From Alphaproteobacteria bacterium (lineage in GTDB: Bacteria > Pseudomonadota > Alphaproteobacteria > ATCC43930 > CGMCC-115725), in contig JAFAYW010000339.1 of NCBI GenBank assembly GCA_019240125.1, positions 30,607 through 94,606 of the forward strand: a DNA stretch of 64,000 bases. The letters run 5' to 3'. Below, piece after piece: positions 9,796 to 32,420 of the stretch. Each line of letters starts with the position of its first letter. The stretch's first letter is position 1. Both the position numbers and the translations under genes were made by a program. A model generated the notes under the pieces. The model made no database searches and had not been told where the DNA came from. It was given only the letters and a program-made list of their open reading frames with translations.

Positions 9796-10183
9796 GGACG
9801 ACGTCCTCGGGAAGATGGTAAGCCGCGCCTTCAGTTTTGAGTCCCCCGTCAAACCCAACAGCTTATTGCGAAACAAGGCACCTGCGCCGATTTTTCAATG
9901 GCTTGACAAGACCCACCGAACGACAAAGCAGGATCTACCGATCCGTATGCGTCAACCGAATCAGTGCTCTAGCAAACTGGAACTTCGCTGTCGAAACGCA
10001 GACGATCCGGCAAGCCCGGCGGCGCGCTCGTTTTGCGAATGAAATATGCCCGAATGGCACCGTATTCTTCTTGATCGGAATTAACATGTGTGGATTAAAT
10101 TATGTCAAATTAAGACTGATCGGCGGTTGTGCTCCGTCACGATGGCCCTGGTCTAAATCAGAAATTGAGCACCAGGGGGATTT

Positions 10184-12622
10184 GTGGCGATGGGCTTTCT
10201 GTCGTCGATCTTCAGCCAGAACGACTTGACGCCACACGGTTTTTGCCTTCTTTGGCGACCGGAACTGATCTGGCTCGACGCCGGGTCAGACGCTCTGATT
10301 GCACTCTCTTACTACTCCATCCCGATCGCATTGCTGGTAATCTTGAGCCGACGGCGCGACTTGGCGTTCGGGTGGATGCTCGGACTGTTCGCGGCGTTCA
10401 TTCTGGCATGTGGGACGACGCATTGGCTCGATGCGGTAACGCTCTGGTATCCTGATTACACAGCGCAAGCCTTGGCAAAGCTTGTGACTGCGGCGCTCTC
10501 GCTTGCGACCGCCATCATCGCATGGCCTATGTTACCTCGCATACTGGCGTTGCCATCTCCCGATACATTGCAAAGGTTAAATGCTCAGCTGCAAGAAGAG
10601 GTGGCGGAGCGCACGCAGGCTGAAAGGGCTCTGCGGGAGCTCAATAATGCCTTGGATAAGCAAGTTGAGGCGCGAACAGCAGAGTTAAGATTAGCGGCAG
10701 AAGAGTTAGCAACAGCGAATCAAAATCTCAGCGCGATCTTTGACGCCTGTCCTCTGGCGATCATCGGTCGCGACGCGCACGGCGTCGTCACGATTTGCAA
10801 TGCAGCTGCCGAAAGCATCTACGGGATATCGGCCGCGAAGATGATCGGCAGCTGTGAATTTTCCTCTGATGCAATACGTGAGTATATTGACGCTCTCATG
10901 CGCGGACAGTCCATCCGTGAGCGAAGTATCACCAGCTTTAATCGGCTATCGGGAGCGACGATCAATTTACGGCTCACCGGCGCACCGATCTACAAAGGAA
11001 ATGGCGAAATCGCCGGAATAATCAGCCTCTCGGAGGATGTCACCGAGGAGGCGCAGACGGCAGCCCAGTTGCAACAGAGCGAAGAGCGTTATCGCAACCT
11101 TGTCGACAATATGGTCGAAGCCGTCATCATGATTAACGAGGATGGCCTTATCCAAGAATTCAATAAGGCCGCGGAGCGGTTAACTGGCTACACTCGAGCG
11201 GACGTGCTTGGCAAAAATGTAAGCCTGTTGCTGCCGTCAGATCTGCGAGCAAGCCACGGTCAATACATCCGCCACTATAGGACCACTGGAGAAGCAAGGA
11301 TAATCGGCATCGGTCGCGATGTCGAAGCATGCCGCAACGACGGCGTTTTAATTCCGGTTCGGCTGGCCGTGTCAGAATGCTGGTCGGGCGGTCAACTATA
11401 CTTCACGGGAACACTCGAAGATTTGAGTGCCAGGCGTGCCCTGGAGCGCGAGAAGGAGCGCATCGAGGATCAGCTTAGACAAGCACAAAAAATGCAAGTT
11501 ATCGGCCAGATCGCAGGCGGCGTTGCGCACGATTTCAATAATCTTCTCAATGTCATTACTCTGACACTTGAATTGATCGGTCAGATGGTTGCCGGTGACA
11601 CTACTGAAGTGCCCGTCTTGGTCACTGAAGCATTAACAGCAGCGCTTCGTGGCGCGGAGATCACTAAACACTTACTGGCCTTTGCCCGACGTCAGCCACT
11701 TAATCCAAAACCGCTTAACGTCAACGATGTTCTTACGAGGGTTTGGAGCCTTCTGCAGCGAGTTATTGGCGAACAGATCGAGAGCGAGCTGCGGTTGGCG
11801 GCAGGGTTATGGCCGGTTTATGCCGACGAAACCCAGCTCACGGCGGCATTGACCAATCTGGCGACCAATGCGCGGGACGCCATGTCCTACGGCGGGAGCC
11901 TGACACTGACCGCCTTCAACACGACACTAGACGCTGGTTTTGCACAAGATAGCGACGTCGTACCGGGGGAATACGTAGCCATCGAGGTGCGCGACACCGG
12001 CACTGGTATGGCCGTGGAGGTTATCGACCAGATATTCGAACCATTCTTCACCACGAAGCCCGTTGGCGAGGGTACTGGGCTCGGCTTGTCCATGGTCTTC
12101 GGCTTCATGAAGCAGTCCCGCGGCCATGTCACAGTCGAAAGTGCTGTCGGTCAAGGCACCTGTTTTCGGCTCTATCTACCGCGTGCGTTGGAAGCAGCCG
12201 CATCGCTTGACACCACGTCAACGCCAGTGCCGATCGTCCAGAATGAAGGTGTCACAATTCTCTTGGTCGACGATGACGACGGGGTCCGTCGGGCCGTTTC
12301 GTTCAACCTAACCACTCTCGGCTATCGCGTTGTTACCGCGGCCAACGCGGCTGAAGCCATCGAAATCCTGCACGACGAGCGCGTCGATCTGCTTTTCTCA
12401 GATGTGGTTATGCCCGGAAAGATGGACGGCCTCGATCTAAATTGCTACGCGCAGCAGCACTGGCCGCAGCTAAGGACCATTCTGGTTTCTGGCAATCCCG
12501 AGGCGCGGCGCAAGTTGGAGGGCAGCCAGGCTGGCATGCAATTGCTGGTCAAACCATATAGGCAGGCAGAGCTTATCCAAGCTCTCAACGAAGCACTTGC
12601 GCGCCCGGTTACAACCTGCTGA
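10184..12622 (+). CDS. Membrane-bound PAS-domain hybrid histidine kinase (multi-TM N-terminus, coiled coil, two PAS, HisKA, HATPase_c, C-terminal REC)
   Basis: 4-5 hydrophobic helices in the first ~120 aa. Two PAS-like blocks follow. H-box GGVAHDFNNLLNVI, N-box LATNARDAM, G1 RDTGTGM, G2 GTGLGLSMV. Receiver ILLVDDDDGVRRAV...DLLFSDVVMPGKMDG...LVKPY. Codon usage is visibly more A/T-rich (TTA, AAA, GAA, AAT) than in neighbouring genes. Confidence 0.9.
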   Translation: MAMGFLSSIFSQNDLTPHGFCLLWRPELIWLDAGSDALIALSYYSIPIALLVILSRRRDLAFGWMLGLFAAFILACGTTHWLDAVTLWYPDYTAQALAKLVTAALSLATAIIAWPMLPRILALPSPDTLQRLNAQLQEEVAERTQAERALRELNNALDKQVEARTAELRLAAEELATANQNLSAIFDACPLAIIGRDAHGVVTICNAAAESIYGISAAKMIGSCEFSSDAIREYIDALMRGQSIRERSITSFNRLSGATINLRLTGAPIYKGNGEIAGIISLSEDVTEEAQTAAQLQQSEERYRNLVDNMVEAVIMINEDGLIQEFNKAAERLTGYTRADVLGKNVSLLLPSDLRASHGQYIRHYRTTGEARIIGIGRDVEACRNDGVLIPVRLAVSECWSGGQLYFTGTLEDLSARRALEREKERIEDQLRQAQKMQVIGQIAGGVAHDFNNLLNVITLTLELIGQMVAGDTTEVPVLVTEALTAALRGAEITKHLLAFARRQPLNPKPLNVNDVLTRVWSLLQRVIGEQIESELRLAAGLWPVYADETQLTAALTNLATNARDAMSYGGSLTLTAFNTTLDAGFAQDSDVVPGEYVAIEVRDTGTGMAVEVIDQIFEPFFTTKPVGEGTGLGLSMVFGFMKQSRGHVTVESAVGQGTCFRLYLPRALEAAASLDTTSTPVPIVQNEGVTILLVDDDDGVRRAVSFNLTTLGYRVVTAANAAEAIEILHDERVDLLFSDVVMPGKMDGLDLNCYAQQHWPQLRTILVSGNPEARRKLEGSQAGMQLLVKPYRQAELIQALNEALARPVTTC

Positions 12623-12859
12623 TTGAATAAATGAGCCCACCGCTACGGTGATGCTGAGAGCCCGCACGTCGCGCGTTTTTGCAGCGCCCGCCGCGCCGAC
12701 GAAGCGGTGTCATGCCGACTGCAAAGTCGCGCTAAATCACCGAGCCGGCCGTTGGCCCGATGTCTGGCGCAACGCGACCTCTACCGTTTCCGCGGGGCGT
12801 TCAAGGGCGTATTGCGCCGCGAAAGCCTCGCCGTCGATCCAAGGTGGAAGCGTGGGAGG

Positions 12860-13237
12860 TCAGCCAAAGCTCGCTTGCGCAGGCGCCACATCTCTCGCTA
12901 AAGCGCTCTGCACAGCCTGGACTAGGTCCAGCGCCAAGGGTTTGTGCAGAAAGCGTGTGACACCCACATCGGCGGCCCGCGCTTCGATGTCGGGGTCGAA
13001 TGCGGCACTGAACATCAGCACCGGCACCGAGGCACCTATTGCACGCCGGAACTGGCGGATGACCTGCACGCCATTAAGCCCATGTATGTCCTGGTCAACA
13101 ATTAGGAGCGCGACACTCGGCAGCTCCGCAAGAAACTGGGCTCCATTTTCATAGGCGACGACCGTGAAATCGTATGCTGTAAACAGGAACCGCAACGCGT
13201 CCCGCACCGCATCGTCGTCGTCAATAATAGCGATCAT
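12860..13237 (-). CDS. Single-domain response regulator (CheY-like receiver, 125 aa)
   Basis: Internal ATG (13237-13235) of ORF 12860..13600 gives MIAIIDDDDAVRDALRFLF...LLIVDQDIHGLNG...VLMFSA...FLHKP, a complete receiver fold pattern. The 121 codons upstream are not protein-like. Confidence 0.8.
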   Translation of the reverse strand: MIAIIDDDDAVRDALRFLFTAYDFTVVAYENGAQFLAELPSVALLIVDQDIHGLNGVQVIRQFRRAIGASVPVLMFSAAFDPDIEARAADVGVTRFLHKPLALDLVQAVQSALARDVAPAQASFG

Positions 13238-13599
13238 CGGCGTTGATGATCGACAATAGCGTGGCCAAGAAGTTATCGTCATTCGTTGCTCATCTTTGCC
13301 CGGATTGGCCACCACTGTGTGGCGCATTATCTTCGCCACTATACCCTCAGCGCAATGAGCCCGCGTGAATCGACCGTGAAATTCAGGGCGTGAATTGCGC
13401 CCAGGAGGATTACTCCATCCGGCTGTGGCCTGAAATGCCTTCTCAGAGCCATTCACGGGACGTGAAACAGACGCCAGACCAAACGAATTAGGACCTATCA
13501 CGGAAGATCGGGCTCTTCGCAGGACGCCCATTGCTGATAGTAAATGCAGATGCCCCTTAATTGCGGCGATTGTGTCTCCCAAGTCAGGAGATTCGCTCA

Positions 13600-13824
13600 A
13601 TGATCTCCGTGAACGTCGAGCACATCGATGCGGCTGCAGTGCTGCGGGAGCTCGTGAACTCGCTTACGGCGGTGAACGCCTACGTGGAGGCATTGCGGTC
13701 TGGCCGGAGTGCACTGGCGCCCGAACAATTAACGTCCACTATAGATAAGACCGCGGCGCAATGCCGGCGCGCTGGCGCAGCAGTAGAGCGCCTTCAGCTA
13801 GTCATGGGCGATCAGGATACCTAG
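13600..13824 (+). CDS. Small DHp-like ORF (74 aa) resembling the HisKA helix pair of FixL/NtrB-type kinases, with Arg where the phospho-accepting His should be; possibly a kinase remnant
   Basis: ATG at 13600 is preceded by AGGAG (13586-13590). LRELVNSLTAVNAYVEALR...IDKTAAQCRRAGAAVERLQ parallels the canonical AHELNQPLTAI.NY.EA.R...ldk...Q..RAG.Ii.RLR DHp pattern. Shifted frames downstream hold kinase-like fragments (RFQQSVDATKLIQQVAS). Confidence 0.4.
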   Translation: MISVNVEHIDAAAVLRELVNSLTAVNAYVEALRSGRSALAPEQLTSTIDKTAAQCRRAGAAVERLQLVMGDQDT

Positions 13825-14340
13825 GTTGGCCGGCAAGAAACGGCATCCGCTTTCAGCAGAGCGTCGATGCGACCAAGCTTATTCAGCAAGTCGCCTCTAC
13901 AACATCGACGTCAACGGCCCGGAACATGCGATCATTGTCGCGAATTGCGCATCACGCGACGCACTCAGCGACCCGCGGCGTCTGCACCTTGCGATCGCCT
14001 AGAACGCGCAGATGATGAAGCGGTTGGCCGGTAAGCGGCCGACACGCAATCCGGGGAGCGCTGCTCCCAGGCATGGCTGAACCACCCGCCCCAGTCAGGG
14101 GGCGGAGGGAGAGCTTGCCCATAGACCGGCATCGCTCCAAGGTAGATGGCCAACAGATGGCAGCTCTTGCTCGTCGTGTCGCGGTATTGCGCAGCCGGGT
14201 TGGTGGTTTCGCCGTTTCGCACGATCTTGTTCAGTCGGAATTCTTGAATTTCACCAGGCGCAGCCGGCAACGTGGGGCCTCAGCTGACAGAGATGATTTG
14301 AGTCCCTGGTGTCGGCTATCAGCTGCCTGCGGAGGCTTGC

Positions 14341-15561
14341 ATGAGTCAGGAGATAGCCGAGTCGTGGTTGCTGGCGACTGCCCTCATCCTGCTCTCGGTT
14401 CCGGCACTGGCGCAGCAGCCCGCACCGGGCGCCCCGCCCGCGGTCGGCGTGGCGCGGGCCGAGCGCCAGCAGATCACGCAACGCGACGAGTTCATCGGCC
14501 GGATCCAGGCAGTCGACCGGGTGGCGCTCATTGCCCGCGTCACCGGCTTTCTCCAAAAACGGCTCTTCGTCGAGGGCGCCGAGGTCAAGAAGGGCGACCT
14601 GCTCTACGAGATCGAGCAGCCGCCGTTTCAAGCGCAGGTCGACGCCGCGAAGGCCAATGTGGAGCAGCTGGACGCACAGCATCGTAATGCCGAATTGACC
14701 CTGGAGCGTGCCCAGGCACTGATGCGCGGACCGGCGGGCCAACAATCGAACGTCGATACCGCGCTCGCCTCCGAGCGCGCGCTGGCGGCGCAGATTGCCG
14801 GCGCGCGGGCGCAGCTGGAGACGGCGCAGATCAACCTCGGCTACACCGAGATGCGCGCACCGATCGACGGCAGGATCAGCGCGACCCAGATCACCGAAGG
14901 CAACGTCGTCTCGCCCACCAGCGGTACGCTGGCGACCATCGTCAGCCAGGATCCGATGTACGTGCAGTTCCCGATCTCGTTGCGCACCGGGCTTGATCTG
15001 CGCAACCGCTACGAAGCGAAGGGCGGGTTCAATGCCGTGATTGTGAAACTGCGCTTGCCGGATGGGCGGACCTATGGCCAGGAGGGCAAGCTCGATTACG
15101 TCTCGCCGACCGTCGCCACAAACACTGACACGATAACGTTGCGCGCGATGGTTCCCAACCCGTTGATCTCAGGCCTGCCGGCTCGAGGGCCGGCGCCCCG
15201 CGAACTGTTCGACGGCGAATTCGTCTCAGTGCTGCTCGAGGGCGTGCAGCCGATCACGGTGCTGGCGATCCCGCGCGCTGCCGTGTTGTCCGATCAACAG
15301 GGCGATTACGTTTACACCGTGGATGCACAGAACAAGGCGCAGATCCGCCGCCTTCAGCTCGGCCAGTCGACCCCGTCTCTGGCGGTGGTGACGAGCGGGC
15401 TAACGGATGGCGAAATGGTCATCAGCGAGGGTTTGCAACGCGTCCACCCTGGCGAAGTGGTATCGGCCGGGCCTGCGACCCCCGAGCCGGTGGTAGCACC
15501 GGGGCAAGCTAAAGACGGACCATCAAGTCCGTCCGCTCCCGAAGCGGGAGCAAAACCGTGA
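14341..15561 (+). CDS. RND efflux periplasmic adaptor (membrane fusion protein, AcrA/HlyD family)
   Basis: Signal/anchor [17 protein letters not shown]. Typical MFP motifs are present (G.I.A...V.L.ARV.G.L....[12 protein letters not shown]; [17 protein letters not shown]; coiled-coil hairpin region). The stop overlaps the RND gene start (GTGA). Confidence 0.9.
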
Positions 15562-18500
15562 TCTCGGCGATCTTCGTCGACCGCCCTCGGCTGGCGGTTG
15601 TGATCGCCGTCGTGATCACCCTTGCCGGCTTGTTGGCACTGTCCCGCATCCCGGTGGCGCAACTACCCGACATCGTGCCGCCGCAGGTGACGGTCGCGGG
15701 GGTCTATCCCGGCGCCTCGGCAGCCGTGGTTGAAGCCAGCATCGCCCAGCCAATCGAGGCGCAAGTCGTCGGCGTGGACAAGATGCTCTACATGAAGTCG
15801 ACGAGCGGCAATGACGGCTCCTACAGCCTGACCGTCAGCTTTGCGCTCGGCAGCGATCCCGACATCGACACCGTCAACGTCAACAACCGCGTGCAAACCG
15901 CGCTCGCCCAACTGCCCGCCGAGGTCCAGTTAGAGGGGCTCACAGTCCAGAAAAAATCGGCGGCCGTCCTGCAATTCATCTCCCTCTATAGCGACAACGC
16001 TCAACAAGACCCTCTGTTCGTCACGAACTACGCGATCATCAACATCGTCGATGTGCTTTCGCGGCTGCCGGGGATCGGGCAGGCGCACATTTTCGGCGCG
16101 CTGAACTACTCGATGCGCATCTGGTTCGACACCCAGCGCCTCGACAATCTGCAATTGACCCCGGCCGACATTATCTCGGCAATCCAGGCGCAGAATGTGC
16201 AGGCGCCGGTCGGTCGGATCGGCGCGCGGCCGATCGGCCATGATCAGCAGTTTCAACTGAACATTCAGACGCAGGGCCGGCTCACAACGCCGGAACAGTT
16301 TGGCAACATTGTTCTGCGCGCCAACCCCGACGGCTCACTGCTGCGCGTGCACGACGTGGCCCGGATAGAACTCGGCGCTCAGAACGAAGATGTCGAGGGC
16401 CGCTATAACGGCGAACCGGCCGTCGCGATCGGGCTCTATCTCTCGCCGGGTGCCAACGCCGTTACAACCGCCGCTTCAGTCATCGCGACGATGGGCCGCT
16501 TGGCGCAGCGCTTTCCGCCCGGTCTCCACTACGTCGTCAATTACGATACGACGATCTTCGTGCGCGACACGATCCACGACGTGCTGGTGACACTGGCGAT
16601 CGCGTTCGCGCTGGTCGTCATCGTCGTCTTCCTCTTTCTCGGGAGTTTGCGCGCGACGATCATCCCGGCGATCGCCGTGCCGGTCAGCGTCATCGGCACC
16701 TTCGCGGTGCTGTTGGTCATGGGGTACTCCGCCAACACCGTGTCGCTGCTGGCGATGGTGCTGGCTATCGGCATCCTGGTCGACGATGCCATCGTCGTCG
16801 TCGAAAATGTCGAGCGGGTGCTGGAGGAAAATCCGCTTCTGTCGCCGGCCGCGGCCACCAAACAGGCGATGACCGAGATCACCGCGCCGATTATCGCGAT
16901 CACCTTGGTGCTGCTGTCGGTGTTTGTACCGGTGGCGTTCATCCCGGGCATTTCAGGGCAGTTATTCCGGCAATTTGCGGTGACGATCAGCGTCGCAATG
17001 TTGATCTCCGCGCTCAACGCACTGACCCTATCGCCTGCCCTGTGCGCGATTTTCCTGCGCCACCGCGGCGTGCCTCGCGGGCCAATGGGCTGGGTGTTGC
17101 GGCGTATCGACAATGTTCGTGACGGCTATGCCTCCATTGTAACCCGCCTGGTGCGCGTTTCTCTATTCGGCGTCGTGCTGGTCGCGGTGAGTGCCGCGGC
17201 GATTTGGGGGCTGGCGCTGATCACACCTACCGGCTTCCTGCCGGAAGAGGATCAGGGCGCCTTCTTTGTCGTCGTGCAATTGCCCGACGGCGCCTCGGTC
17301 TATCGCACGCGAGAGGCGGTCAGCCGTATCACCAAGCTGCTACGGCAGATGCCGCAGGTGGATAAGGTATTCTCGATCAACGGCTTTTCGATCATTGACG
17401 GGGTCAACGAGTCGAACGCCGGGTTCATCGTCCCACTATTAAAGCCGTTTGCCGACCGCGCCGGAACGGCCGCTTCGGCGCAGGCATTGATCGGCCGTGT
17501 TTTCGCTGAAGGCAGGGAGGTGCGCAGCGCCAATGTCATCGCGTTCAACCTGCCGCCCATCATTGGGCTCTCGACCACCGGCGGGTTTGAGTACGATCTT
17601 GAGGCGCTGGAAGGACAAGAGCCCGCGGCGATGAACGGTGTCATGCAGGGCCTCGTCGCCAATGCCAATCATGATCCGCGGCTCGCACGCGTGTTCTCAA
17701 CCTATACCGCCAACAACCCATCGATCTTTCTCGACATCGACCGCGAGAAAGCGCAGGCACTCGGGCTGGGCATGAACGATGTGTTCGGCGCCCTGCAGGC
17801 CACGTTGGGCGGCGTCTATATCAACAATTTCAATCTGTTTGGACGGGTTTGGCAGGTCAACATCCAGGGCGAGGCCGCCGACCGCAGCGATGTCTCCTCG
17901 CTGTGGAAGATCTACATCCGCAACAAATACGGCACGGACGTACCATTGCGCTCTATCGCGGATGCCCGGGTCGTCGTCGGCCCGCAGGTCATCACGCGCT
18001 ACAACAACTACAGGGCAATCCCGATTCAGGGCAGCCCCGCCGCGGGGATCTCCTCGGGCAGCGCGCTCGCGGCGATGGCCGACGTCTCCGGAAAAACCTT
18101 GCCCTCCGGCTACGGTTACGAATGGACCGGCACCGCCTATCAAGAGGTGGCCGCTTCCGGACAGACCGGTGCGATTCTCGGGCTCGCCGTGCTGTTCGCG
18201 TTTCTGTTTCTTGTCGCGCTTTACGAAAGCTGGATGATCCCGATCCCGGTTCTGCTTTCGGTCCCGATAGGCGTCGTAGGGGCGTTTCTCGGCATCCTGC
18301 TCTTTCGTCTGCAGCTTGACCTCTATGCCGAAATCGGCCTTGTCGTACTGATCGCGATGGCGGCGAAGAACGGTATCCTGATCGTTGAATTCGCCAAGGA
18401 CCAGCGCGAGCAAGGGAAGGACATCCGCGAAGCGGCCGTGCTCGGCGCACGAATGCGGTTTCGCGCGGTCATGATGACCTCGTTCGCCTTCATTCTCGGC

Positions 18501-18701
18501 GTCTATCCGCTCGTCGTTGCGCAAGGTGCCGCGGAAATCAGCCGGCACGATGTCGGAACCCCCGTGTTTGCTGGCATGATCGCGGCGAGCGCGATCGGGC
18601 TGTTCGTCATCCCAATGCTTTACGTCACATTTCAGACCTTGCGCGAGCGCACCAGCGCGCGATTCGGGAACGCGTCGGCGCGAGCAGGCAAAACCGGGTA
18701 A
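15558..18701 (+). CDS. RND multidrug efflux permease (AcrB/HAE1 family, 1047 aa)
   Basis: [23 protein letters not shown] start, 12-TM pattern, conserved [20 protein letters not shown] and [20 protein letters not shown] motifs. Confidence 0.95.
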
Positions 18702-24294: not shown

Positions 24295-24443
24295 AACGAT
24301 TACAGCCTTTCAGGTGGAATATCGGCGCGCTCACCTGAACGCGCCGCTCGGGTCGGGAGACCACTCGCGCCTATGCTTCCGGGAAACCAACTATTTTCGG
24401 ACAGACAGCGTGTGTTCGCTCGGAGTGTTAGTTTACGCCCCAA

Positions 24444-24605
24444 TCATTCGACATTATCGCTAACCGCCGACGCATCGGATTGACCGACGTCCTCTGACTT
24501 CTGGTCAAGTGTCCGCTCTTGCTGGCGTTTGGCCTTTTCTACTTTTCTTGCCTGTTTCAAGCGATCGCGCTCGGCGCGCTCGAAGCGGTAATTGGGTTTG
24601 CGCAT
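24444..24605 (-). CDS. Small basic hypothetical protein (53 aa; below the ORF-track length cut-off)
   Basis: Hand translation from ATG (24605-24603) gives MRKPNYRFERAERDRLKQARKVEKAKRQQERTLDQKSEDVGQSDASAVSDNVE, ending at TGA (24446-24444). It starts 14 nt after the stop of the upstream small ORF. Confidence 0.35.
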   Translation of the reverse strand: MRKPNYRFERAERDRLKQARKVEKAKRQQERTLDQKSEDVGQSDASAVSDNVE

Positions 24606-24618
24606 TTAGATCGGCTTC

Positions 24619-24846
24619 CTACTTGGTAGTCGCCGCAGGCCCAGACCTTCGGAAGGCCGTCCTTGGCTGGGATTGAGCCTGCACCCGGCTTTTGTGGGAG
24701 GCGATCCAGGCTTCCGCCGCCGCTTCGCTGCCGAAACCGCTGACGGTGGTGGGATACGTGCCTTCGATCGATACCTTGACGCTGAACTCATCAGCGGCAA
24801 CCGGTATCACCTCGTACAACGCTTCGGCGTAGGGATGAGTTTTCAC
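24619..24846 (-). CDS. Small hypothetical protein (75 aa)
   Basis: ORF track 24619..24846 with a GTG start. KTHPYAEALYEVIPVAADEFSVKVSIEGTYPTTVSGFGSEAAAEAWIASHK looks like a real folded domain. Confidence 0.45.
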   Translation of the reverse strand: MKTHPYAEALYEVIPVAADEFSVKVSIEGTYPTTVSGFGSEAAAEAWIASHKSRVQAQSQPRTAFRRSGPAATTK

Positions 24847-25084
24847 GATCGCCCTAGTTCAACCATGTCATGTTACCGCCTCGCGGCTTCCTTCTTCAGG
24901 TGAACCGAGCGGCGCCCGATTCGAGCGTCGGATCAACCACCGGAACTGGATTGGGGGTAGCTCGGCGCTCTGTCGAGCCACGGACAGGCCGAACCCAAAG
25001 GGCGACGCGCTATAAATGGGCGCTTTTTCGGCTCATTGCAAGATGCCGCGCACCTGTTCGCCAGCGCGAGCGTTGACGGGCTAT

Positions 25085-26968
25085 CTATGATGGCGCCGCG
25101 GCCCGCTCAAGCAAGAACATGCGCATCGACCCATAGCCTTTCGCCGCCTCGGTCATCCCGACATATTCGCAGGTGAATGCGTGCGAATTGTGCAGCGCGA
25201 GGACGGCGGCCATTGTCTCGGTAACGTAAACGCATCCCTCGGGTGTGACCGGCTCGATGCGCGCGGCGCGGCTGACATGCGCCCCAAAGAAGTTTTCGCG
25301 CCCGAGTATCGGATCGCGGGCCGAGTAGGCAGGACCGAGATGCAGGCCGACCCGCAGCCCAAGATCGTCGGGCAGCCCATTCGCGATGCGGTCGATCGAG
25401 GCCAGCGCTTCCTGCAGATCGAGCGCGCAACTGGCCGCCTTCCCTGCGTCGTCGAACACGACGAAGAGACCATCGCCCCAGGTATTGGCAAGCAGGATAT
25501 CGGCGCGGTGACGCCCAATGACCTCGGCGAGGCTGCCGAGGATCAGCCGGATAAAACTCCGCAGCTGCGCGTCAGTAAGCCTGCTGAACCCATGCACGTC
25601 TCCGAAGAGCATCGCGCGAGGGCGTCGTTCAAGACGCTCGCTCTCCGGAACGGGGGCGGATGGCGGTGTGGACCCGCTGGGGACAGAAATCGTGTGCTGC
25701 GCCATGCCGGTCCGCGACCAGAGCTCTCGGTCAGCGGCAGTGCCGGCTGGACCGCTCGCGGGCCGGCCATCCCACACCGCGATCTGCTCGGCTTCGGTAG
25801 ACAGGTGCCTGGCCTGCAGCAGAGCCAACCCCATAGCGAGCTGGCTGCAATAACTGAATAGATGGTCGTCGCCTAGATACTCGCCGTCGGTGGCATAGCG
25901 CACCGTGCCGCTTTTCTCGGCAGCGGCAAGACAGATGGCAAACCGCTCCTCCCACCGGCCGCCTGCTAGCCGCACCGACGCCTCGACGAAGTCGGCGCGG
26001 TCGAAGGGGAGGACAAGATGAACGCTGGCTCCACGGGCCAGCAACGCCTCGGCGAACAGGATGTCAGCGCCCGCCGCCAGCGAGCCGTAGCCAACCGCGA
26101 CATCGCGCTGTTCCAACAGCGCTGTGATCCGGTGGGCGACCTGCGCCTCCTGCACGGCGGGAAAGCGGCCTGGCTGATCCGGCGCGGCAATGATGTGGCC
26201 GACATAATGGATGATCCGGGGTGGCCGCAATTCGTCCAACCATACCTCGGCGAGCCCTTTAGCGTCGACCAGCAGCCGCAACTGGCGAACCGTGCTCGAC
26301 TGCCCCCGATAATCGGCGTGATCCGGGTTGCGAATCACGGCGCGCACCACCGCCGCACTGGCACGCGCCCCGACCAGATCGCCCAGCACGAGCTTTGCCT
26401 CCAACTCGGTGGCGGCCTCAAAGTAACTTTTTGGTTCGGCTGCGCAGCGCGTCAACTCATCCAAGACCTCGCGCGCAACGGCATCGGCGGCGCTCTGTCG
26501 GCGCGCGAGCACATGGAGTGTCGCGGCATTGACGCCGGGATAGTACGCCTCGGCATTGCCGGCCGCCCGCGCCGCCTGAAAGACCCGCCCATAGGCTTCG
26601 GCGGCGGCGAGAATGGCAGCGTCGCGCTGGGCGCCAAGGGGCATCGCGAGGGCGGCATCCTTCATAAGGCGCGGCTGCAAGGTCGCGACGGCGAGTCCAA
26701 GACTTGCCGACAGCGGCACTGAAGGTACACCGTCGAGATCGAGCTTCTTCAAAAGCTCGGCAGCCCGTCGCCAAGCTCCGGTTGAGGCCAGACACAACAC
26801 GGCACGGTGCCGCAGCGCGAGATTGTCGGGAAAATGTTCCAACCCCCGCCGCGCAAGGTCGAACGCGCGGAATAGCTCTCCCCGTCTCTCGTGCCGGCGA
26901 ACCTCGGCAAACCATTCTTCGGCCGTCTTCCGGTCCGCGGGAGCAGCGGGTTCGTACTCGTCAATCAT
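25085..26968 (-). CDS. TPR-like (DUF4071-like) - SLOG-like Rossmannoid - class III adenylate/guanylate cyclase protein (627 aa)
   Basis: aa 1-245 are helical repeats containing AEAYYPGVNAATLHVL. aa ~250-415 read IIHYVGH...VAVGYGSLAAGADILFAEALLARGASVHLVLPF (SLOG/DprA/YpsA-like GxxxxGxDxxAxxxAL plus strand). aa 452-627 form the cyclase: metal Asp motifs MLFGDVHGFS and WGDGLFVVF, LRVGLHLGP and GAHVSRAARIE. Confidence 0.9.
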   Translation of the reverse strand: MIDEYEPAAPADRKTAEEWFAEVRRHERRGELFRAFDLARRGLEHFPDNLALRHRAVLCLASTGAWRRAAELLKKLDLDGVPSVPLSASLGLAVATLQPRLMKDAALAMPLGAQRDAAILAAAEAYGRVFQAARAAGNAEAYYPGVNAATLHVLARRQSAADAVAREVLDELTRCAAEPKSYFEAATELEAKLVLGDLVGARASAAVVRAVIRNPDHADYRGQSSTVRQLRLLVDAKGLAEVWLDELRPPRIIHYVGHIIAAPDQPGRFPAVQEAQVAHRITALLEQRDVAVGYGSLAAGADILFAEALLARGASVHLVLPFDRADFVEASVRLAGGRWEERFAICLAAAEKSGTVRYATDGEYLGDDHLFSYCSQLAMGLALLQARHLSTEAEQIAVWDGRPASGPAGTAADRELWSRTGMAQHTISVPSGSTPPSAPVPESERLERRPRAMLFGDVHGFSRLTDAQLRSFIRLILGSLAEVIGRHRADILLANTWGDGLFVVFDDAGKAASCALDLQEALASIDRIANGLPDDLGLRVGLHLGPAYSARDPILGRENFFGAHVSRAARIEPVTPEGCVYVTETMAAVLALHNSHAFTCEYVGMTEAAKGYGSMRMFLLERAAAPS

Positions 26969-27125
26969 GCCCTTCTCTCGGCCGTGCCTGATGCCCCGCC
27001 AGCCATCGGAGCCGGTCTTCGAAAGACGGCGCCTCCCCCAAAGCCTACATCACGGGGCCGGCGCTCGCAGCCTTGTTTACAGCGGGCGATTGCCGTCAGG
27101 GCCCGCTCTCCGATAAACCGGGGGC

Positions 27126-30100
27126 ATGGCGCGCACGGTCCGAATCTTTGTGTCGTCCCCCGCGGATGTCGGGCATGAGAGGCGCCGCGTCGATCGCGTG
27201 GTGGCGCGCCTCAACGGCGAATTCGCCGGCGTCGTCCGGCTTGAGACGATCCGCTGGGAGACCGAGTTCTACAGGGCCCACGCGACATTCCAGGAACAGA
27301 TCCCGGCCGCCGCCAATTGCGACATCGTGGTGGCGATCTTTCGCGCCCGCCTCGGCACCGAGCTGCCGCCCGAGTTCGAGCGATTGCCGGATGGCACCCC
27401 CTATCCGAGCGGCACCGCCTATGAGGTCTTGACCGCGATAGCGGCGCGGCAAAGCGGCGTGCTGCCCGACGTGTATGTCTTCCGCTACCCGGAACCGCCG
27501 ACCGTTCGCCTTGACGACCCCGAGGCGGTACAGATCGAGACGCAGTGGCAGCGGCTGAAGGCGTTTTTCGACAAATGGTTTGTCGCGGCCGAGGGACCCT
27601 TCAAGGCGGCCTTCCACGCCTATCGCTCGGTTGACGACCTCGAGGATCAGCTCGACCGGCTGTTGCGCGGCTGGCTCGAAGACAATGTGCTGCATGGCCG
27701 TGCGGTGGCCTGGCCAATCGCGCTGAAGGGCTCGCCGTTCCGAGGCCTGGCGGCGTTCGGCGCCAAGCACGCGCCGGTGTTTTTCGGCCGCTCGCGCGAC
27801 ATCGCACGCGCCATCGATCGCTGGAGGGAGGCCGCCGAACGCCGCGCCGCCTTTCTGCTGGTGGTCGGCGCCAGCGGCTCCGGCAAATCATCCCTGGCGC
27901 GCGCCGGCTTGCTGCCGCGGCTGACCGCGCCGGGCGTCGCCCCAGAGGTCGATCTCTGGCGCGCCGCCGTGTTGCGGCCGTCCGAGGCTGCGGATGGGCC
28001 GGTGATGAGCCTTGCCATGCGTCTGCTTGATGGCGAGCCCGACATCCCCGAGACCGAATCAGGCCGGCCGCCTGCGATTCCGGAACTGGCCGTGAGCGAT
28101 TACCGCACCCCGTTAGAGCTGGCGGCGTTGCTCGCCCACGCCGATGCCGCGGCACTGGCGCCGCTGTTGCGCGCGCTTGACCGTGTAGGCGAGGAAGCTC
28201 GCGCGCAGCAAGGTTATGAGCGGCCGGTGCGGGCCGATCTGGTGATCCTGGTCGACCAGCTGGATGAGCTCTTCGCCGCCGAAATTGCACCCGACGAACG
28301 CGCCCGCTTCGCCAAATTGCTGCGGCTGATGGCAGAGAGCGGCCGCGTCTGGGTCGTAGCAACGCTGCGCGCCGATCTCTACGAACGCTTTCTCGCCGAA
28401 GCGGATCTGCTGGCACTGAAAGGCGCCGGTGCCTCGTACGACCTGGCGGCGCCCGGTCCGGCGGAGCTGGCCGAGATCGTGCGCAAGCCGGCCGAGGCGG
28501 CCGAGCTGCAATTCGAACGCGATACCGCTTCCGGAGAGGCGCTTGACGAGCGGCTGCTGCGCGACGCGGACCGCCCCGACATGCTGCCGCTGTTGCAATT
28601 GGCGCTGAACCGGCTGTTTGAGGAACGCATCTCCGCCGGCAGCGACACCCGGCTCAGCCTCGCCGCGTATCAGGCGTTGGGCGGCCTCGCCGGCATCATC
28701 GACCGCGAGGCGGAGGGCGCGGTTGCCGATCTCGGCGAGGCGGAGCAGACGCGGTTGCCACGCCTGTTGCGGCGCCTGGCCACCGTGACACCCGGAAATG
28801 CGGGCGCCGCCAGCCTGACCATCCGCACCGTGCCCCTGGCCGAGGCCGCGCCCGACGAGCCATCGCGCCGACTTGTCGAAAGGCTGGTCGAAGCCCGCAT
28901 CCTGCTGACCTCGGGCGAGGGCGCCGAGGCCGGGGTGCATCTGGCGCATCAGCGGGTGCTGAGCGATTGGCAGCGTGCGCGCGAATTGGTCGCGACTAAC
29001 CAGGATTTCTACCGCATCCGCGAGGAGGTCGAGGCACAGCGCCGGCGCTGGCACGGCGTCGGTGGTCGCAGCGACCTGCTGCTGCCGCGCGGCCTTCCCT
29101 TGGCCGAGGCGGAGTCAGTGGCTGCGCGGTTCGGTGACGAACTCGCGCCGGAGACCCGTGCCTTTATCGCCGCGTCGAGCCGCCGCGCGCATCTGCGGCA
29201 GCGGCTGACCGCCGCGGCCGCGGGGATCTTCGCGCTACTCGCGATCAGCGCGACCGGCGCCGGCATCGTTGCCTTCAGCGAACGCCACCGCGCGCTGGAA
29301 CAGCAGGCGCTCGCCGAGACCGAAAAGAACCGTGCCCAGCGCAACCTCGCCGCCGCCAAGCAGGCGGTGCATGGGCTGGTGTTCGACATTGCGCAGGGCA
29401 TGCGCAGCCAAGCCGGTGTCGGCGCGGCGACGATCCAGAAGGTGCTGGACCGCGTTCAGGCGACAGTCGACCGCCTATCGCAGGAAGCCCCGGACGATGT
29501 CGAATTATCGGTCGATCGCGCCACGATGTTCGACGAATTCGCCCGCACCTTTCTCGCGGCCGGCGATCTTGCTGCCGCCGCCAAGTCGGCGGACGCGGCC
29601 TTGACGATCATGCGCGCCTTGGCCGCCGCGCACCCCGACGACCGCCACCGGCAGGACGATCTGGCGGTGATCCTCGATCGCACCGCCGAGATCAAATGGC
29701 GCAGCGGCGACATTCCCGCCGCGCTCACGCAGTATGAGGAATCCGCCGGGATCGTGCGCCAGCTGGTCGCCGCCGCGCCGGATGATCCGCGCTATCAGCG
29801 CGACCTTGCGCTCAGCCTCTCCAATATCGCCGACATGAAGCTGAAATCAGGCGACAGTGCCACCGCGCTCGCCTCGTATCAGCAGGCGCTCGCGATCCAC
29901 CGCCGTCTCGCGACCACGGATCCGACGGCGACCGAGCCGCAACGCGACGTTGCGGTGCTGCTGAACCGCACCGCCGACGTTCAGCTTCAGCTGGGGGACA
30001 CGAAATCGGCGCTGGCCGCCTACCGCGAAGCCCTGGCGATCGACCGCAAACTCGCCGCGGAAGATGCCGGAAATGTCGAATGGCAGCATGACGTTGCCGT

Positions 30101-32420
30101 CGATCTCGAACGGATTGGCGATGTGCTGCAAGGCGCCGGCGATGCGCCCGCCGCGCGCGCCTCCTATGACGAGGAGGTCGGCATCGTGCGCGGCCTCGGC
30201 CGGCTCGATCCGAGTAACACCGACTGGCAGCGCGAACTCGCGATCGGGCTAGAGCGGCAGGGCGACATGGCTGCGCAGGCCGGCGAGGCTGCCCCGGCTC
30301 TCGCCGCGTTTCATGAAGAGCTGACGATCTTCCGCCGCCTAGTCGAGCGCGATTCCGCCAATGCGCAATGGCAGCACGACCTTTCTCTGGCGCTGGAACG
30401 CACCGGCGACATCGAGTGGCAGCGCGGCGATCAGGACGCGGCGATGGCGGCGCATCGCGAGGCGCTGGCGCTTCGGCGCAAAGCAGTGGAGCGCGATCCG
30501 CAGAACGTCGATGTGCAGCACGCGCTGTCGGTCAGTCTCGAACGCATCGGCGATATCGAATCGGAGCGCGGCAGCGCCGCCGCGGCGCTTGCCGCGTATG
30601 AGGAGGAGATGGCGATCAACCGCCGCCTCGCCGAGCGCGACCCCGGCAATATCGAATGGCAGAAAAACCTCGCGATCAGCCTCGAGCGTCGCGGCATGGT
30701 CAAACTGCGCACCGACGACACTTCGGCGGCGCTGGCCGCCTTCGGCGAAGAGGTCGAGCTTTTCCGCGACATCGTCAATCACGTGGCCGACAATCTCGAT
30801 TACCAGCGTGGCCTGTCCATCGCTCTGGAAAAGCAGACCGGCGCCTACCAGCACGTCGGCGACGTTGTGAAGGCGCTGACGGTTGAACAGGAGGTCTTGA
30901 CGATCCGCCGCAAGCTGATCGGCCATAACCCCGGCAACAGCGACTGGCAGGACGACCTCGCCATCGCGCTGACCACGATCGGCGATCTGAAATCGCTGCA
31001 GCAGGACACCAAGGCTGCCATGGCGGCACACCAGGAAGCCTTGACCATCCGCCGCAAATTGGCCGAGCACGACCCCGATGATGCGACGCGGCAGCATGCG
31101 CTGGCCGTCAGTCTGGAACGCCTTGGCGATCTGGATATCCAGGCAAAGGACGATAGCGGTGCCAAGACTTTTTTCAGCGAGGAATTGGCGATCATCCGAA
31201 AGATCGCGGCGCGCGACCCCGGCAATCGTGGTTGGCAGCATGACGTCGCCGCGGCGCTGGAGCGCGAGGGGCTTGGCCATATATTCGCGGGAGAGATCGC
31301 GGCGGCGCTAAATGACAATCAGGAGGCGCTGGCGCTGCACCGCTCCCTCGCCGCCGCCGATCCCGGCAATATCGACTTCCAGGAGGAGCTGGCGCGCAGC
31401 CTCGATCGGGTCGGCACGCTGCAGCAGCGCGCCGGCGATCATACGGCCGCACAGACGATCTTGACCGACGCTGTCAATGTCCGGCGCGCATTGTTGCAGC
31501 ACGCGCCGGACGACACCGAGAAACAGCGCGCTCTCGCCACCGTCCTCGGCGACTTTGCCGACGCGGCGTCGCAAAGCGGCGACAAGCTAGCCGCGATTGC
31601 CGCGCTCAGCGAGCAGGCGCAATTGACCCGGCGCAGCGCCGATGCCACCCCCGCCGACAAAACCCTGCGTCGCACGCTGGCGGCGACGCTTGACAAGCTC
31701 GGCGACCTGCAGCGGCAGGGCGGCGACAACCCGGCGGCGGCCGCGACTTACAGTGAAGCAATCGACGCCTACCGCGCGCTGGCGCAGGCAGTGCCGGGTG
31801 ATGCCGGGGCGCAGCGCGCCGTGGCGGTCGAGCTCAACAAGGCGGGCGACACGCAAGTTGCGGCTGGCGATACGGCGGCAGCATTAGCGCCGTTCAACCA
31901 GGCACTCGCCATAATGCGCGGCATCGTCCATGACAGCCCGAAGAACCCGCTCTGGCAACGCGACCTCTCGGTGACGTTGACCCGGATCGCGCAGGCGACG
32001 CTGCGTGGCGGCGACAGCGCTGCGGCAATCTCCTCCTATCGAGAGGCACTTGATCTGCGCAACCAAATCGCCGACGCCGACCCAGCCAACATCGCCGCGC
32101 AACAGGAAGCGGCTGTTGTCGCGACGAGCCTCGGCGATGCCGAAATGGCGGTGCAGAACAAGGCGGCCGCCTTGGCGGCGTATCGCCAGAGCCTGACCCG
32201 GGCGCGCCAGCTGGCCCAGCGTGATCCGGGGCGCGTCGAGTGGCAAACCGGTGAAATCCTCGTGCTCGGCAAGATTGCCGCCGCCGCGGCGGAGGCGGAT
32301 CGCACCGCGGCGCTCGGCGAAGCGCTGGAGATCGCCGACCGGCTGGCCCATGATGGCAAGCTGAAGGGCGAGCAGGCCGCCTGGCCTGACCAGCTTCGCA
32401 AGCTGCTGGCCAAGGACTAA
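27126..32420 (+). CDS. Giant STAND NTPase (1764 aa): DUF4062-type TIR-like N-terminal domain - P-loop NTPase - single TM helix - about 20 TPR-like repeats
   Basis: N-terminus VRIFVSSPADVGHERRRV...CDIVVAIFRARLG...SGTAYEVLTAI (DUF4062 pattern). PFRGLAAFGAKHAPVFFGRSRD precedes Walker A LLVVGASGSGKSSLARAGLLPRL (27867-27890). Walker B is DLVILVDQLDELF. Hydrophobic helix LTAAAAGIFALLAISATGAGIVAF (~29205-29276). The rest is repeated DP.N..WQ.DLA.SLER.GD......GD...AL.AY.E.L.I.R.LA units. Confidence 0.9.
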   Translation: MARTVRIFVSSPADVGHERRRVDRVVARLNGEFAGVVRLETIRWETEFYRAHATFQEQIPAAANCDIVVAIFRARLGTELPPEFERLPDGTPYPSGTAYEVLTAIAARQSGVLPDVYVFRYPEPPTVRLDDPEAVQIETQWQRLKAFFDKWFVAAEGPFKAAFHAYRSVDDLEDQLDRLLRGWLEDNVLHGRAVAWPIALKGSPFRGLAAFGAKHAPVFFGRSRDIARAIDRWREAAERRAAFLLVVGASGSGKSSLARAGLLPRLTAPGVAPEVDLWRAAVLRPSEAADGPVMSLAMRLLDGEPDIPETESGRPPAIPELAVSDYRTPLELAALLAHADAAALAPLLRALDRVGEEARAQQGYERPVRADLVILVDQLDELFAAEIAPDERARFAKLLRLMAESGRVWVVATLRADLYERFLAEADLLALKGAGASYDLAAPGPAELAEIVRKPAEAAELQFERDTASGEALDERLLRDADRPDMLPLLQLALNRLFEERISAGSDTRLSLAAYQALGGLAGIIDREAEGAVADLGEAEQTRLPRLLRRLATVTPGNAGAASLTIRTVPLAEAAPDEPSRRLVERLVEARILLTSGEGAEAGVHLAHQRVLSDWQRARELVATNQDFYRIREEVEAQRRRWHGVGGRSDLLLPRGLPLAEAESVAARFGDELAPETRAFIAASSRRAHLRQRLTAAAAGIFALLAISATGAGIVAFSERHRALEQQALAETEKNRAQRNLAAAKQAVHGLVFDIAQGMRSQAGVGAATIQKVLDRVQATVDRLSQEAPDDVELSVDRATMFDEFARTFLAAGDLAAAAKSADAALTIMRALAAAHPDDRHRQDDLAVILDRTAEIKWRSGDIPAALTQYEESAGIVRQLVAAAPDDPRYQRDLALSLSNIADMKLKSGDSATALASYQQALAIHRRLATTDPTATEPQRDVAVLLNRTADVQLQLGDTKSALAAYREALAIDRKLAAEDAGNVEWQHDVAVDLERIGDVLQGAGDAPAARASYDEEVGIVRGLGRLDPSNTDWQRELAIGLERQGDMAAQAGEAAPALAAFHEELTIFRRLVERDSANAQWQHDLSLALERTGDIEWQRGDQDAAMAAHREALALRRKAVERDPQNVDVQHALSVSLERIGDIESERGSAAAALAAYEEEMAINRRLAERDPGNIEWQKNLAISLERRGMVKLRTDDTSAALAAFGEEVELFRDIVNHVADNLDYQRGLSIALEKQTGAYQHVGDVVKALTVEQEVLTIRRKLIGHNPGNSDWQDDLAIALTTIGDLKSLQQDTKAAMAAHQEALTIRRKLAEHDPDDATRQHALAVSLERLGDLDIQAKDDSGAKTFFSEELAIIRKIAARDPGNRGWQHDVAAALEREGLGHIFAGEIAAALNDNQEALALHRSLAAADPGNIDFQEELARSLDRVGTLQQRAGDHTAAQTILTDAVNVRRALLQHAPDDTEKQRALATVLGDFADAASQSGDKLAAIAALSEQAQLTRRSADATPADKTLRRTLAATLDKLGDLQRQGGDNPAAAATYSEAIDAYRALAQAVPGDAGAQRAVAVELNKAGDTQVAAGDTAAALAPFNQALAIMRGIVHDSPKNPLWQRDLSVTLTRIAQATLRGGDSAAAISSYREALDLRNQIADADPANIAAQQEAAVVATSLGDAEMAVQNKAAALAAYRQSLTRARQLAQRDPGRVEWQTGEILVLGKIAAAAAEADRTAALGEALEIADRLAHDGKLKGEQAAWPDQLRKLLAKD
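29485..32417 (+). repeat. About 20 tandem ~48-codon TPR-like coding repeats within CDS 27126..32420
   Basis: Anchors (A/D)P(D/G)(D/N)xxxQ recur about 20 times (APDDVELS, HPDDRHRQ, APDDPRYQ, DPTATEPQ, DAGNVEWQ, DPSNTDWQ, DSANAQWQ, DPQNVDVQ, DPGNIEWQ ... DPGRVEWQ). Confidence 0.75.

Follow-up and report, generated by a model that had tools for sequence, protein, structure and literature searches.

Two divergently transcribed genes in a 64,000-nucleotide stretch of DNA from an alphaproteobacterium (assembly GCA_019240125.1, contig JAFAYW010000339.1, positions 30,607 to 94,606; hereafter the window) belong, as judged from gene neighbourhoods in other genomes, to a widespread and conserved bacterial pair whose two members are functionally linked. 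The first encodes a protein that joins a TPR-S sensor domain, a SLOG-like domain and a predicted class III nucleotidyl cyclase, and the second a receptor-like protein with a DUF4062-type head, an nSTAND1 NTPase, a predicted transmembrane helix and a repeat array. We give about even weight to the proposal of a conserved two-gene relay, here in one of its versions, which would turn an NAD-derived signal into a cyclic-nucleotide signal.

25085..26968, minus strand: cyclase gene, 627 aa (open reading frame and translation, ATG start)
27126..32420, plus strand: receptor gene, 1764 aa, DUF4062-like/nSTAND1/transmembrane/repeat (open reading frame and translation, ATG start)
26969..27125, no strand: divergent intergenic spacer, 157 bp (sequence read)

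The coordinates of both open reading frames (ORFs) and of the spacer had been given in an original prediction made from the letters of the window, and they are exact; indeed, an independent gene caller places both genes identically on the same DNA in a public metagenome contig (ENA ERZ27313870, k141_488889). The motifs quoted there (GASGSGKS, ILVDQLDE, YYPGVNAATL and GSLAAGADILFAEALLARGASVHLVLP) are all present, as is the single predicted transmembrane helix.

Linkage of the two genes across genomes

A scan of one genome per species returned at least 434 confirmed cyclase-family loci, the best 80 of which were examined (homologues of 38-64% identity). They are distributed over Alpha-, Beta-, Gamma- and Deltaproteobacteria, Actinomycetota, Acidobacteriota, Binataceae and Cyanobacteria; many are metagenome-assembled genomes (MAGs) with short flanks, and ORFs in these related loci were called mechanically. 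With hidden Markov models (HMMs) covering TIR and heads of the window type, a TIR or DUF4062-head ORF was detected within 10 kb of the cyclase gene in 42 of the 80 loci and within 1 kb in 33, in every orientation and on either strand. Such ORFs are 10 to 35 times denser close to the cyclase gene, with 0.228 per kb over the first kilobase and 0.006-0.02 per kb at distances of 3-10 kb; about 34 of them lie within 1 kb, whereas the 3-10 kb background predicts about 2. The co-localisation anticipated by the original prediction is thus well beyond chance, and chance adjacency is rejected on the grounds of this enrichment near the cyclase gene and of its recurrence across phyla, orientations and partner architectures. 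Furthermore, the housekeeping neighbours of the window were sought in the 80 loci and none was found, save one unrelated DEAD-box match; this lack of shared synteny indicates that the linkage was not inherited by descent of gene order.

When the neighbouring ORFs are clustered, a cluster containing nSTAND1-type proteins adjoins the cyclase gene in 17 loci, some of its members being TIR-WD40 proteins in which Pfam detects no STAND domain, and a second cluster (12 loci) consists of TIR_2 proteins. The window-type head itself is carried by seven loci.

On the cyclase side, the same three-part architecture occurs in at least 987 homologues, and a profile search with TPR-S plus SLOG returned 4,920 protein clusters (50% identity), 1,610 of them with E <1e-30. 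The TPR-S region alone, used as homologue query, gave 24 matches only, chiefly short fragments. Two paralogous TPR-S/SLOG/cyclase copies with different partners are found in single MAGs (L011 and L014 in DATFCQ01, L024 and L035 in VEQP01), so that several modules per genome are possible.

Architecture of the partner proteins

The conserved element of the partners is the TIR-family head, whereas the STAND, TPR, WD40, Sel1 and beta-lactamase modules vary. TIR heads are joined to a transmembrane helix and TPR, to Sel1, to a transmembrane helix and a beta-lactamase fold, or to a transmembrane helix and WD40; further forms are short TIR proteins with C-terminal transmembrane helices and proteins combining a head, nSTAND1, a transmembrane helix and either TPR or WD40. 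The original prediction described the partner as a DUF4062-STAND protein: the linkage is real, but what recurs is the TIR-family head, for which STAND is one of several scaffolds.

Two loci are informative as to the head. In L065, the partner combines TIR_2, nSTAND1, a transmembrane helix and TPR, which is the architecture of the window protein with a canonical TIR head; it also weakly matches the NPHP3 TPR model. In L047, one ORF (11853-13427) carries TIR_2 and an above-threshold DUF4062 in tandem, and the next (13423-17073), which overlaps it by 4 bp, carries nSTAND1, a transmembrane helix and WD40; a frameshift may have divided one gene into these two ORFs. Of the evidence gathered here on the head, this swapping is the strongest, and it suggests that the head of the window protein fulfils the function of a TIR domain. 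The TIR domains of the neighbours keep an invariant Glu.

Seven of 9 STAND-type partners and the majority of the TIR partners possess an equivalent transmembrane helix; the Kyte-Doolittle threshold applied (mean >=1.9) is reached by only 4 of 63 cyclase-family proteins. In most partners the helix separates the cytoplasmic part from the repeats, including in one that bears a beta-lactamase-fold domain, which is normally periplasmic.

In Sphingomonadales (L073, L076, L077, L080 and L069), a short TIR partner of ~340-380 aa lies 30-110 bp upstream of the cyclase gene on the same strand and, in the first four of these loci, ends in one or two C-terminal hydrophobic helices. These loci are a minimal version of the pair.

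The receptor protein

The features of the 1764-aa protein are as follows.

27126..27515, plus strand: DUF4062-type (TIR-like) head, residues ~1-130 (sub-threshold Pfam match, homologues, conserved residues)
27249-27266, plus strand: W44-E45 motif (conservation)
27411-27425, plus strand: candidate catalytic E100 in GTAYE (conservation)
27735..29060, plus strand: nSTAND1 STAND NTPase, residues 204-645 (Pfam)
27867-27890, plus strand: Walker A, GASGSGKS, residues 248-255 (motif read)
28245-28268, plus strand: Walker B, ILVDQLDE, residues 374-381 (motif read)
29205..29276, plus strand: single predicted transmembrane helix, residues 694-717, with an Arg-rich N-terminal flank (hydropathy)
29583..32345, plus strand: ~19 TPR-like repeats of 48-residue period, residues ~820-1740 (Pfam, motif spacing)

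The STAND NTPase, as originally proposed, is clearly of the nSTAND1 type (PF20703, 265.4 bits for a cut-off of 27.1, E 1.6e-78) with intact Walker A and B motifs; this clade was named in 2021 in predicted counter-invader systems. The repeat array is likewise present (TPR_12, 117.6 bits, plus TPR_10 and TPR_1 matches), with DPxNxxWQ and AxxYxE motifs spaced 48 residues and ~19 copies. Helix 694-717 is the sole 19-residue segment of the protein with a Kyte-Doolittle mean >=1.9. Because there is a single helix, and because a NADase and an NTPase need cytoplasmic substrates, the repeat array should be extracytoplasmic.

The head had been described as DUF4062-type and TIR-like. It scores 19.3 bits against DUF4062 within the whole protein and 23.0 bits in isolation, for a Pfam cut-off of 24.7, and the model is matched by 28 of 38 head homologues (E <= 0.01; best E 6.6e-6). 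Residues F8, W44, E45, Q56, G96, T97 and E100 are conserved in these 38 homologues, and F8, W44-E45 and E100 are comparable by position with the published F11, W51-E52 and E87/E97. According to two 2026 preprints, the DUF4062 proteins are a family of TIR-like NADases marked by an aromatic motif near the N-terminus, a W-E motif and a catalytic Glu, with members that act against phage (Swarozyc, Evangelion) or, in humans, as part of TEP1; a NACHT ATPase adjoins DUF4062 in human NWD1, NWD2, NPHP3 and TEP1, several of which carry WD40 repeats. A sequence-profile search of the head against the PDB gave noise only, and its comparison with the TIR_2 domains of the neighbours (hhalign) was not significant (probability ~3%, E 0.012-0.016). 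Homology between head and TIR is therefore not claimed from these data; the TIR-like status of the head draws on the DUF4062 literature and on the head swapping in L065 and L047.

The cyclase protein

The 627-aa protein falls into three parts.

26234..26923, minus strand: TPR-S sensor domain, all-helical, residues ~16-245, Pfam core 36-151 (Pfam, AlphaFold2)
25679..26221, minus strand: SLOG-fold Rossmannoid, residues ~250-430 (AlphaFold2 domain model, Foldseek)
25103..25630, minus strand: class III nucleotidyl cyclase catalytic domain, residues ~447-622 (Pfam, PDB profile, Foldseek)

The AlphaFold2 model of the whole protein, computed with 23 homologues as input, has a predicted local distance difference test score (pLDDT) of 87.7 and a predicted template-modelling score of 0.88, and displays in order a helical N-domain (helices alone, pLDDT >90), a beta-alpha-beta Rossmannoid and a cyclase fold. 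The TPR-like N-terminus of the original prediction is indeed a TPR-S domain (PF20308) above the Pfam cut-off (30.5 bits against 27.6, residues 36-151). Relatives score 35-54 bits, and their N-domain also weakly matches MAP3K_TRAF_bd, an ASK1-type TPR. All 63 family members compared keep R100, K103, Y126, N147 and E190, and the YYPGVNAATL motif occupies residues 142-151.

The middle part matches nothing in Pfam over residues ~250-430, including no sequence-profile match to a curated SLOG model, and Foldseek with the whole 627-aa model returned cyclase matches exclusively. The domain was thus modelled separately (residues 240-440, AlphaFold2, pLDDT 90.1) and searched against the PDB with Foldseek. 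The best matches are DprA from three species (top E 5.4e-4), the DprA-like ShosA, LOG, Moco carrier protein and TM1055 (E 5e-4 to 3e-2, probability 0.8-1.0, template-modelling (TM) scores ~0.4), all of which belong to the SLOG superfamily (Smf/DprA-LOG). The domain also contains the Gly-rich loops GSLAAGAD and GPAGTAAD and a GxxGTxxD motif, with GSLAAGADILFAEALLARGASVHLVLP at residues 295-321; G295, G300, D302, R342, Q395, D400 and D413 are invariant in the 63 family members. These loops, with the invariant G295, G300, D302 and D413, support the SLOG assignment, and since the list of matches is coherent we regard the domain, with moderate support, as SLOG-like by fold, in keeping with the SLOG/DprA-like segment foreseen in the original prediction.

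The class III cyclase recognised at the outset is found by Pfam (Guanylate_cyc, PF00211, 37.9 bits for a cut-off of 21.9, residues 452-621), by a PDB profile match (3mr7, E 4.5e-12) and by Foldseek (1ybt and 2w01, E ~1e-8, target TM-scores 0.7-0.8). The metal-binding residues D457 and D499 are invariant in the 63 family members, their positions being confirmed by the 3mr7 alignment, and the catalytic (transition-state) Arg R570 is kept in 62 of the 63. The substrate positions are occupied by N495 and N559 in place of the K/D (ATP) or E/C (GTP) pair, and S566, a Ser or Thr in the family, replaces the usual transition-state Asn. The domain is thus probably active, and its product is not predictable from the residues, since N495/N559 and S/T566 are non-canonical.

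Relatives with fused or adjacent regulators

In some relatives, the complete TPR-S/SLOG/cyclase module is preceded in the same polypeptide by Trans_reg_C, BTAD and cNMP_binding domains, where cNMP stands for a cyclic nucleoside monophosphate.

L083, 4185-7091: P0303, fused to a transcription factor (Pfam architecture)
L084, 7987-10860: P0365, fused to a transcription factor (Pfam architecture)

P0303 is 40% identical to the window protein over the whole TPR-S/SLOG/cyclase module. P0336, P0359 and P0307 also carry an N-terminal transcription-factor extension, that of P0336 being devoid of a cNMP_binding match. Both fused genes whose surroundings are readable (L083 and L084) adjoin a TIR gene, with either a transmembrane helix or a transmembrane helix and WD40. 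In the L074 locus of Zavarzinia aquatilis (8272-9993), which has no TIR gene within 10 kb, 8 bp separate the end of a CRP-type regulator gene (cNMP_binding and HTH_Crp_2) from the cyclase-family gene downstream of it.

The mobilizable plasmid pSBC2-4 of Caballeronia sp. SBC2 (L082, NZ_CP049320.1 23346-41040) encodes a family member of 31% identity, the start of which is overlapped by a lipoprotein-like hypothetical gene, and a TIR, WD40 and DUF4231 (SLATT-like) gene cluster lies ~5 kb from it. At its N-terminus, the DUF4231 protein has a match to the family SLOG HMM (E 4.9e-5); pairwise BLASTP of the SLOG domain against this protein gives one short motif only (E 0.002).

A proposed relay and its direction

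In the relay that we propose, a cue would bind the extracytoplasmic repeat array of the receptor (27126-32420), the STAND module would then oligomerise in a manner dependent on nucleoside triphosphate (NTP), and the DUF4062 heads thus brought together would cleave or rearrange NAD+ into an ADP-ribose or cyclic ADP-ribose (cADPR)-type messenger. The soluble 627-aa protein would capture this messenger through its TPR-S domain, its SLOG domain or both, the class III cyclase domain would be switched on, and the resulting cyclic mononucleotide would most likely feed cNMP-binding regulators. The analysis establishes the domain identities, the conserved key residues and a strong gene linkage independent of orientation; the enzyme activities, the identity of both messengers, the direction of flow, the membrane topology and the biological role are inferred.

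We think that the direction is from the TIR-family head through an NAD-derived messenger to TPR-S/SLOG, the cyclase, cNMP and a regulator. The partners are equipped with sensor arrays of their own, and a Pfam search for a cNMP-binding domain in the window STAND protein and in the scanned partner proteins found none. In the fused relatives, it is the cyclase protein that bears a cNMP-binding transcription factor, and the CRP-type regulator of Zavarzinia, 8 bp upstream of the cyclase-family gene, and the Caballeronia DUF4231 protein, with its family SLOG beside a TIR gene, point the same way. Finally, in type VIII Thoeris a TIR protein makes canonical cADPR that activates a TPR plus CMP-hydrolase effector; the effector's TPR is presumed to be the receptor, with the role in TIR signalling credited to a 2020 prediction of Burroughs and Aravind, and the SLOG domain of ThsA binds 3'cADPR (bioRxiv 10.64898/2025.12.03.692087). 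The TPR of this type VIII effector (ThsI) is presumably of the TPR-S family. Both kinds of receiver domain, TPR-S and SLOG, precede the catalytic domain in the window cyclase protein.

Several observations weigh against this relay. In 38 of the 80 loci, including most of the closest Stellaceae relatives, the available DNA holds no TIR-family gene, so that the cyclase protein can work without an adjacent partner. The window head falls under the DUF4062 gathering cut-off and does not significantly match the TIR_2 domains of the neighbours, and the one bacterial DUF4062 enzyme characterised so far yields plain ADP-ribose and works by depleting NAD+, not by signalling. Furthermore, the SLOG fold matches are modest (TM ~0.4, E ~5e-4), the cyclase has neither the canonical substrate pair nor the transition-state Asn, and the topology comes from a simple hydropathy scan.

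Relation to known systems

The pair is Thoeris-like in logic, yet it is a member of no named type. Type VIII Thoeris (ThsB TIR plus ThsI) resembles it by a TIR-family gene beside a gene whose product starts with a TPR sensor, followed by a Rossmannoid nucleotide-handling domain. However, the output in the window is a SLOG fold with a class III cyclase where ThsI has a CMP hydrolase, the partner is a DUF4062, nSTAND1, transmembrane and repeat protein instead of a small ThsB, and the pair has no defence-island context. Membership of type VIII was rejected: a cyclase is present, and no CMP hydrolase was found by Pfam or among the 50 fold matches listed. In types I, III and VII (SLOG-SIR2 ThsA, SLOG effector and SLATT effector, respectively), a SLOG domain receives a TIR-made cADPR isomer, and the SLOG type of the window recurs in a fusion with a DUF4231/SLATT-like membrane protein whose gene neighbours a TIR gene; in contrast, the window pair has no SIR2, SLATT or other killing domain, and a cyclase stands in the effector place. 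In terms of Thoeris components, the sensor side is present (TPR-S, SLOG) and relatives have TIR_2 or ThsB_TIR partners, the producer in the window being a sub-threshold DUF4062 head. A Thoeris-type defence-island context was looked for at the window and at the related loci and was not found.

Pycsar, in which a PF00211 cyclase is paired with TIR or transmembrane effectors, shares with the window a PF00211-family cyclase gene beside a TIR-family gene, but the window cyclase protein has two N-terminal ligand-sensor domains. Pycsar effectors need a cNMP-binding domain. Membership was rejected, as PycC is unmatched (14.4 bits) and the partner has no such domain. CBASS was rejected as well, given that neither Pfam nor PADLOC scans revealed a CD-NTase-like domain.

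The receptor can be compared with the DUF4062 NADases (Swarozyc, Evangelion and human TEP1, NWD1, NWD2 and NPHP3), with which it appears to share an N-terminal head with F, W-E and Glu motifs and, for the human members, a DUF4062 beside a NACHT STAND NTPase. Unlike it, the bacterial DUF4062 enzymes studied are single-gene systems with neither a STAND module nor a cyclase partner; moreover, the window head is below the Pfam cut-off, and a transmembrane helix divides the window protein. With the nSTAND1/Avs-type STAND proteins it has in common an effector head, a STAND NTPase and a C-terminal repeat sensor, and its nSTAND1 membership is clear, but it differs by its transmembrane helix, its probably extracytoplasmic sensor and its dedicated second gene, and no Avs or other PADLOC STAND model matched it. 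The layout of a cytoplasmic signalling domain, one transmembrane helix and an external repeat sensor is analogous to that of one-pass receptors of the ToxR/CadC type. An analogy with Toll-like receptors lies in the TIR-family domain on the cytoplasmic side, with no claim of sensor homology; in the window protein, the TIR-type domain is N-terminal (inverted) and the output would be enzymatic instead of adaptor recruitment.

The original prediction held the system to be undescribed. This stands insofar as no PADLOC system matches and the version with a cyclase output was not found in the literature examined, but not for the parts: nSTAND1 (2021), the DUF4062 NADases (2026) and the TIR-to-TPR sensing logic (2025) are already published. 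The literature search, which did not extend to the Aravind-lab papers in NAR 2015 and J Bacteriol 2020, found no cyclase-output pairing, no STAND-gated transmembrane receptor and no transcription-factor fusion. The largest TIR survey removed operons containing PF00211, and the accessible portion of its supplementary tables lists no cyclase effector.

Alternative explanations

The alternative that survives best keeps the same relay and gives it a Thoeris-type role in immunity against phage or invaders: the receptor would detect infection or envelope attack, and the cyclase would be an amplifier or effector acting by a toxic or alarm cNMP or by an NTP drain. We regard it as unlikely, although much in the parts list speaks for it. 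DUF4062 proteins defend against phage (Swarozyc, Evangelion), nSTAND1 was defined within predicted counter-invader systems, the layout of STAND with TPR or WD40 is that of pattern-recognition proteins resembling nucleotide-binding leucine-rich-repeat receptors (NLRs), and phage protection is known for systems of TIR plus a TPR effector. Moreover, the head matches the PADLOC candidate PDC-S60 (E 1.2e-6), several paralogous modules occur per genome with highly variable partner C-termini, and the systematic TIR survey, having dropped PF00211-containing operons, would miss a cyclase effector.

The genomic context is nevertheless not supportive of the conflict or immunity role first suggested. The window pair is not flanked by defence genes, its base composition is that of the host, and no PADLOC system model matched the window proteins; the partial matches are to PycC (E 0.0039, 14.4 bits), to mad3 and mad8 (P-loop-level, E ~0.01) and to PDC-S60 (head). 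Of the 107 ORFs scanned around 38 TIR-positive loci, ~2 gave PADLOC matches, all to models that also pick up generic helicases. By Pfam, the neighbours encode metabolic or regulatory proteins (fatty-acid hydroxylase, AcrB, GGDEF, LysR, dihydroorotate dehydrogenase and others), as in the window. Furthermore, the sensor arrays are predicted to be extracytoplasmic, and the fused cNMP-binding transcription factors and the adjacent CRP-type regulator point to gene regulation. Provided that the relay is right, we lean slightly towards envelope or environment sensing coupled to gene regulation over abortive-infection immunity: signal transduction is favoured by the external sensor domains, the transcription-factor fusions and the host-like base composition, and immunity is kept alive by the DUF4062/TIR defence precedents, the STAND architecture and the variable sensor modules.

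A second alternative reverses the flow, as in Pycsar: the TPR-S/SLOG protein would sense a trigger and make a cNMP that activates an NAD+-depleting TIR-like head. This is the wiring implied by the original prediction, with the cyclase as generator and the head as effector, and it is the less likely direction; we consider it improbable. The pairing of a PF00211 cyclase with TIR or transmembrane effectors is known in Pycsar, the characterised DUF4062 enzymes are NAD+-depleting executioners, the substrate residues of the cyclase are non-canonical and PycC gives a weak match. However, this score leaves the PycC model essentially unmatched, the window STAND protein and the scanned partners contain no cNMP-binding domain, and where such a domain is present it sits on the transcription-factor extension of the cyclase protein. 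In addition, the large sensor arrays and the STAND switch of the partners are typical of sensors and not of messenger-gated effectors.

It is very hard to credit that the two genes are independent neighbours by accident, one for an NLR-like NADase acting alone and the other for an adenylate cyclase under ordinary regulation: the 38 cyclase loci with no TIR-family neighbour in the available DNA, the existence of single-gene DUF4062 systems and the divergent transcription, which is not that of one operon, fit such independence, but ~34 TIR/head ORFs stand within 1 kb against ~2 expected, the adjacency recurs over phyla, orientations and partner architectures, and there is no shared synteny through which descent could account for it.

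Locus and surroundings

As already stated in the original prediction, the surroundings of the pair are those of a housekeeping region. The flanking genes are those for a luciferase-like oxidoreductase, rpsU, a DEAD-box helicase, a major facilitator superfamily (MFS) transporter, purD, xseA, rph, rdgB and hemN. The guanine-plus-cytosine content of the pair (0.67-0.69) is host-like as claimed, at the upper end of the range over the window (0.55-0.69) and no outlier. A sigma-70 consensus was looked for in the spacer (26969-27125) with no match, and an Rfam scan of the whole window matched no RNA family. The 790 bp that separate the DEAD-box helicase gene from the cyclase gene (24295-25084) contain a single called ORF of 53 aa, no Rfam match and a weak terminator-like hairpin (25007-25023, plus strand). 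At 14341-18701, upstream of the MFS and luciferase-like genes, an RND efflux pair encodes a membrane-fusion protein and a 1047-aa AcrB-type transporter; it is ordinary and unconnected with the cyclase/receptor pair.

Implications

A wider reading, which we put forward tentatively, is that TIR-family enzymes serve beyond immunity as the cytoplasmic output of one-pass transmembrane receptors, in a two-messenger cascade controlling transcription that would be a functional analogue, within everyday bacterial physiology, of signalling by Toll-like receptors; in some versions, a STAND NTPase would gate the output. To our knowledge, the one role recorded so far for bacterial TIR-derived messengers is to trigger effectors that kill the cell in defence against phage. 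If the reading is true, an NAD+-derived messenger would be coupled to cyclic-nucleotide synthesis, one second messenger turning on another, and TIR-family and NLR-like STAND modules would be placed behind a membrane helix with external repeat sensors, in a cascade that in some relatives would lead straight to a cNMP-binding transcription factor. The module is common (at least 434 loci) and lies outside defence islands, and the PF00211 filter of the largest TIR survey would remove it, which amounts to a blind spot. The pair may also make the DUF4062-STAND-repeat architecture, found in human NWD1, NWD2, TEP1 and NPHP3, tractable in a bacterial model.

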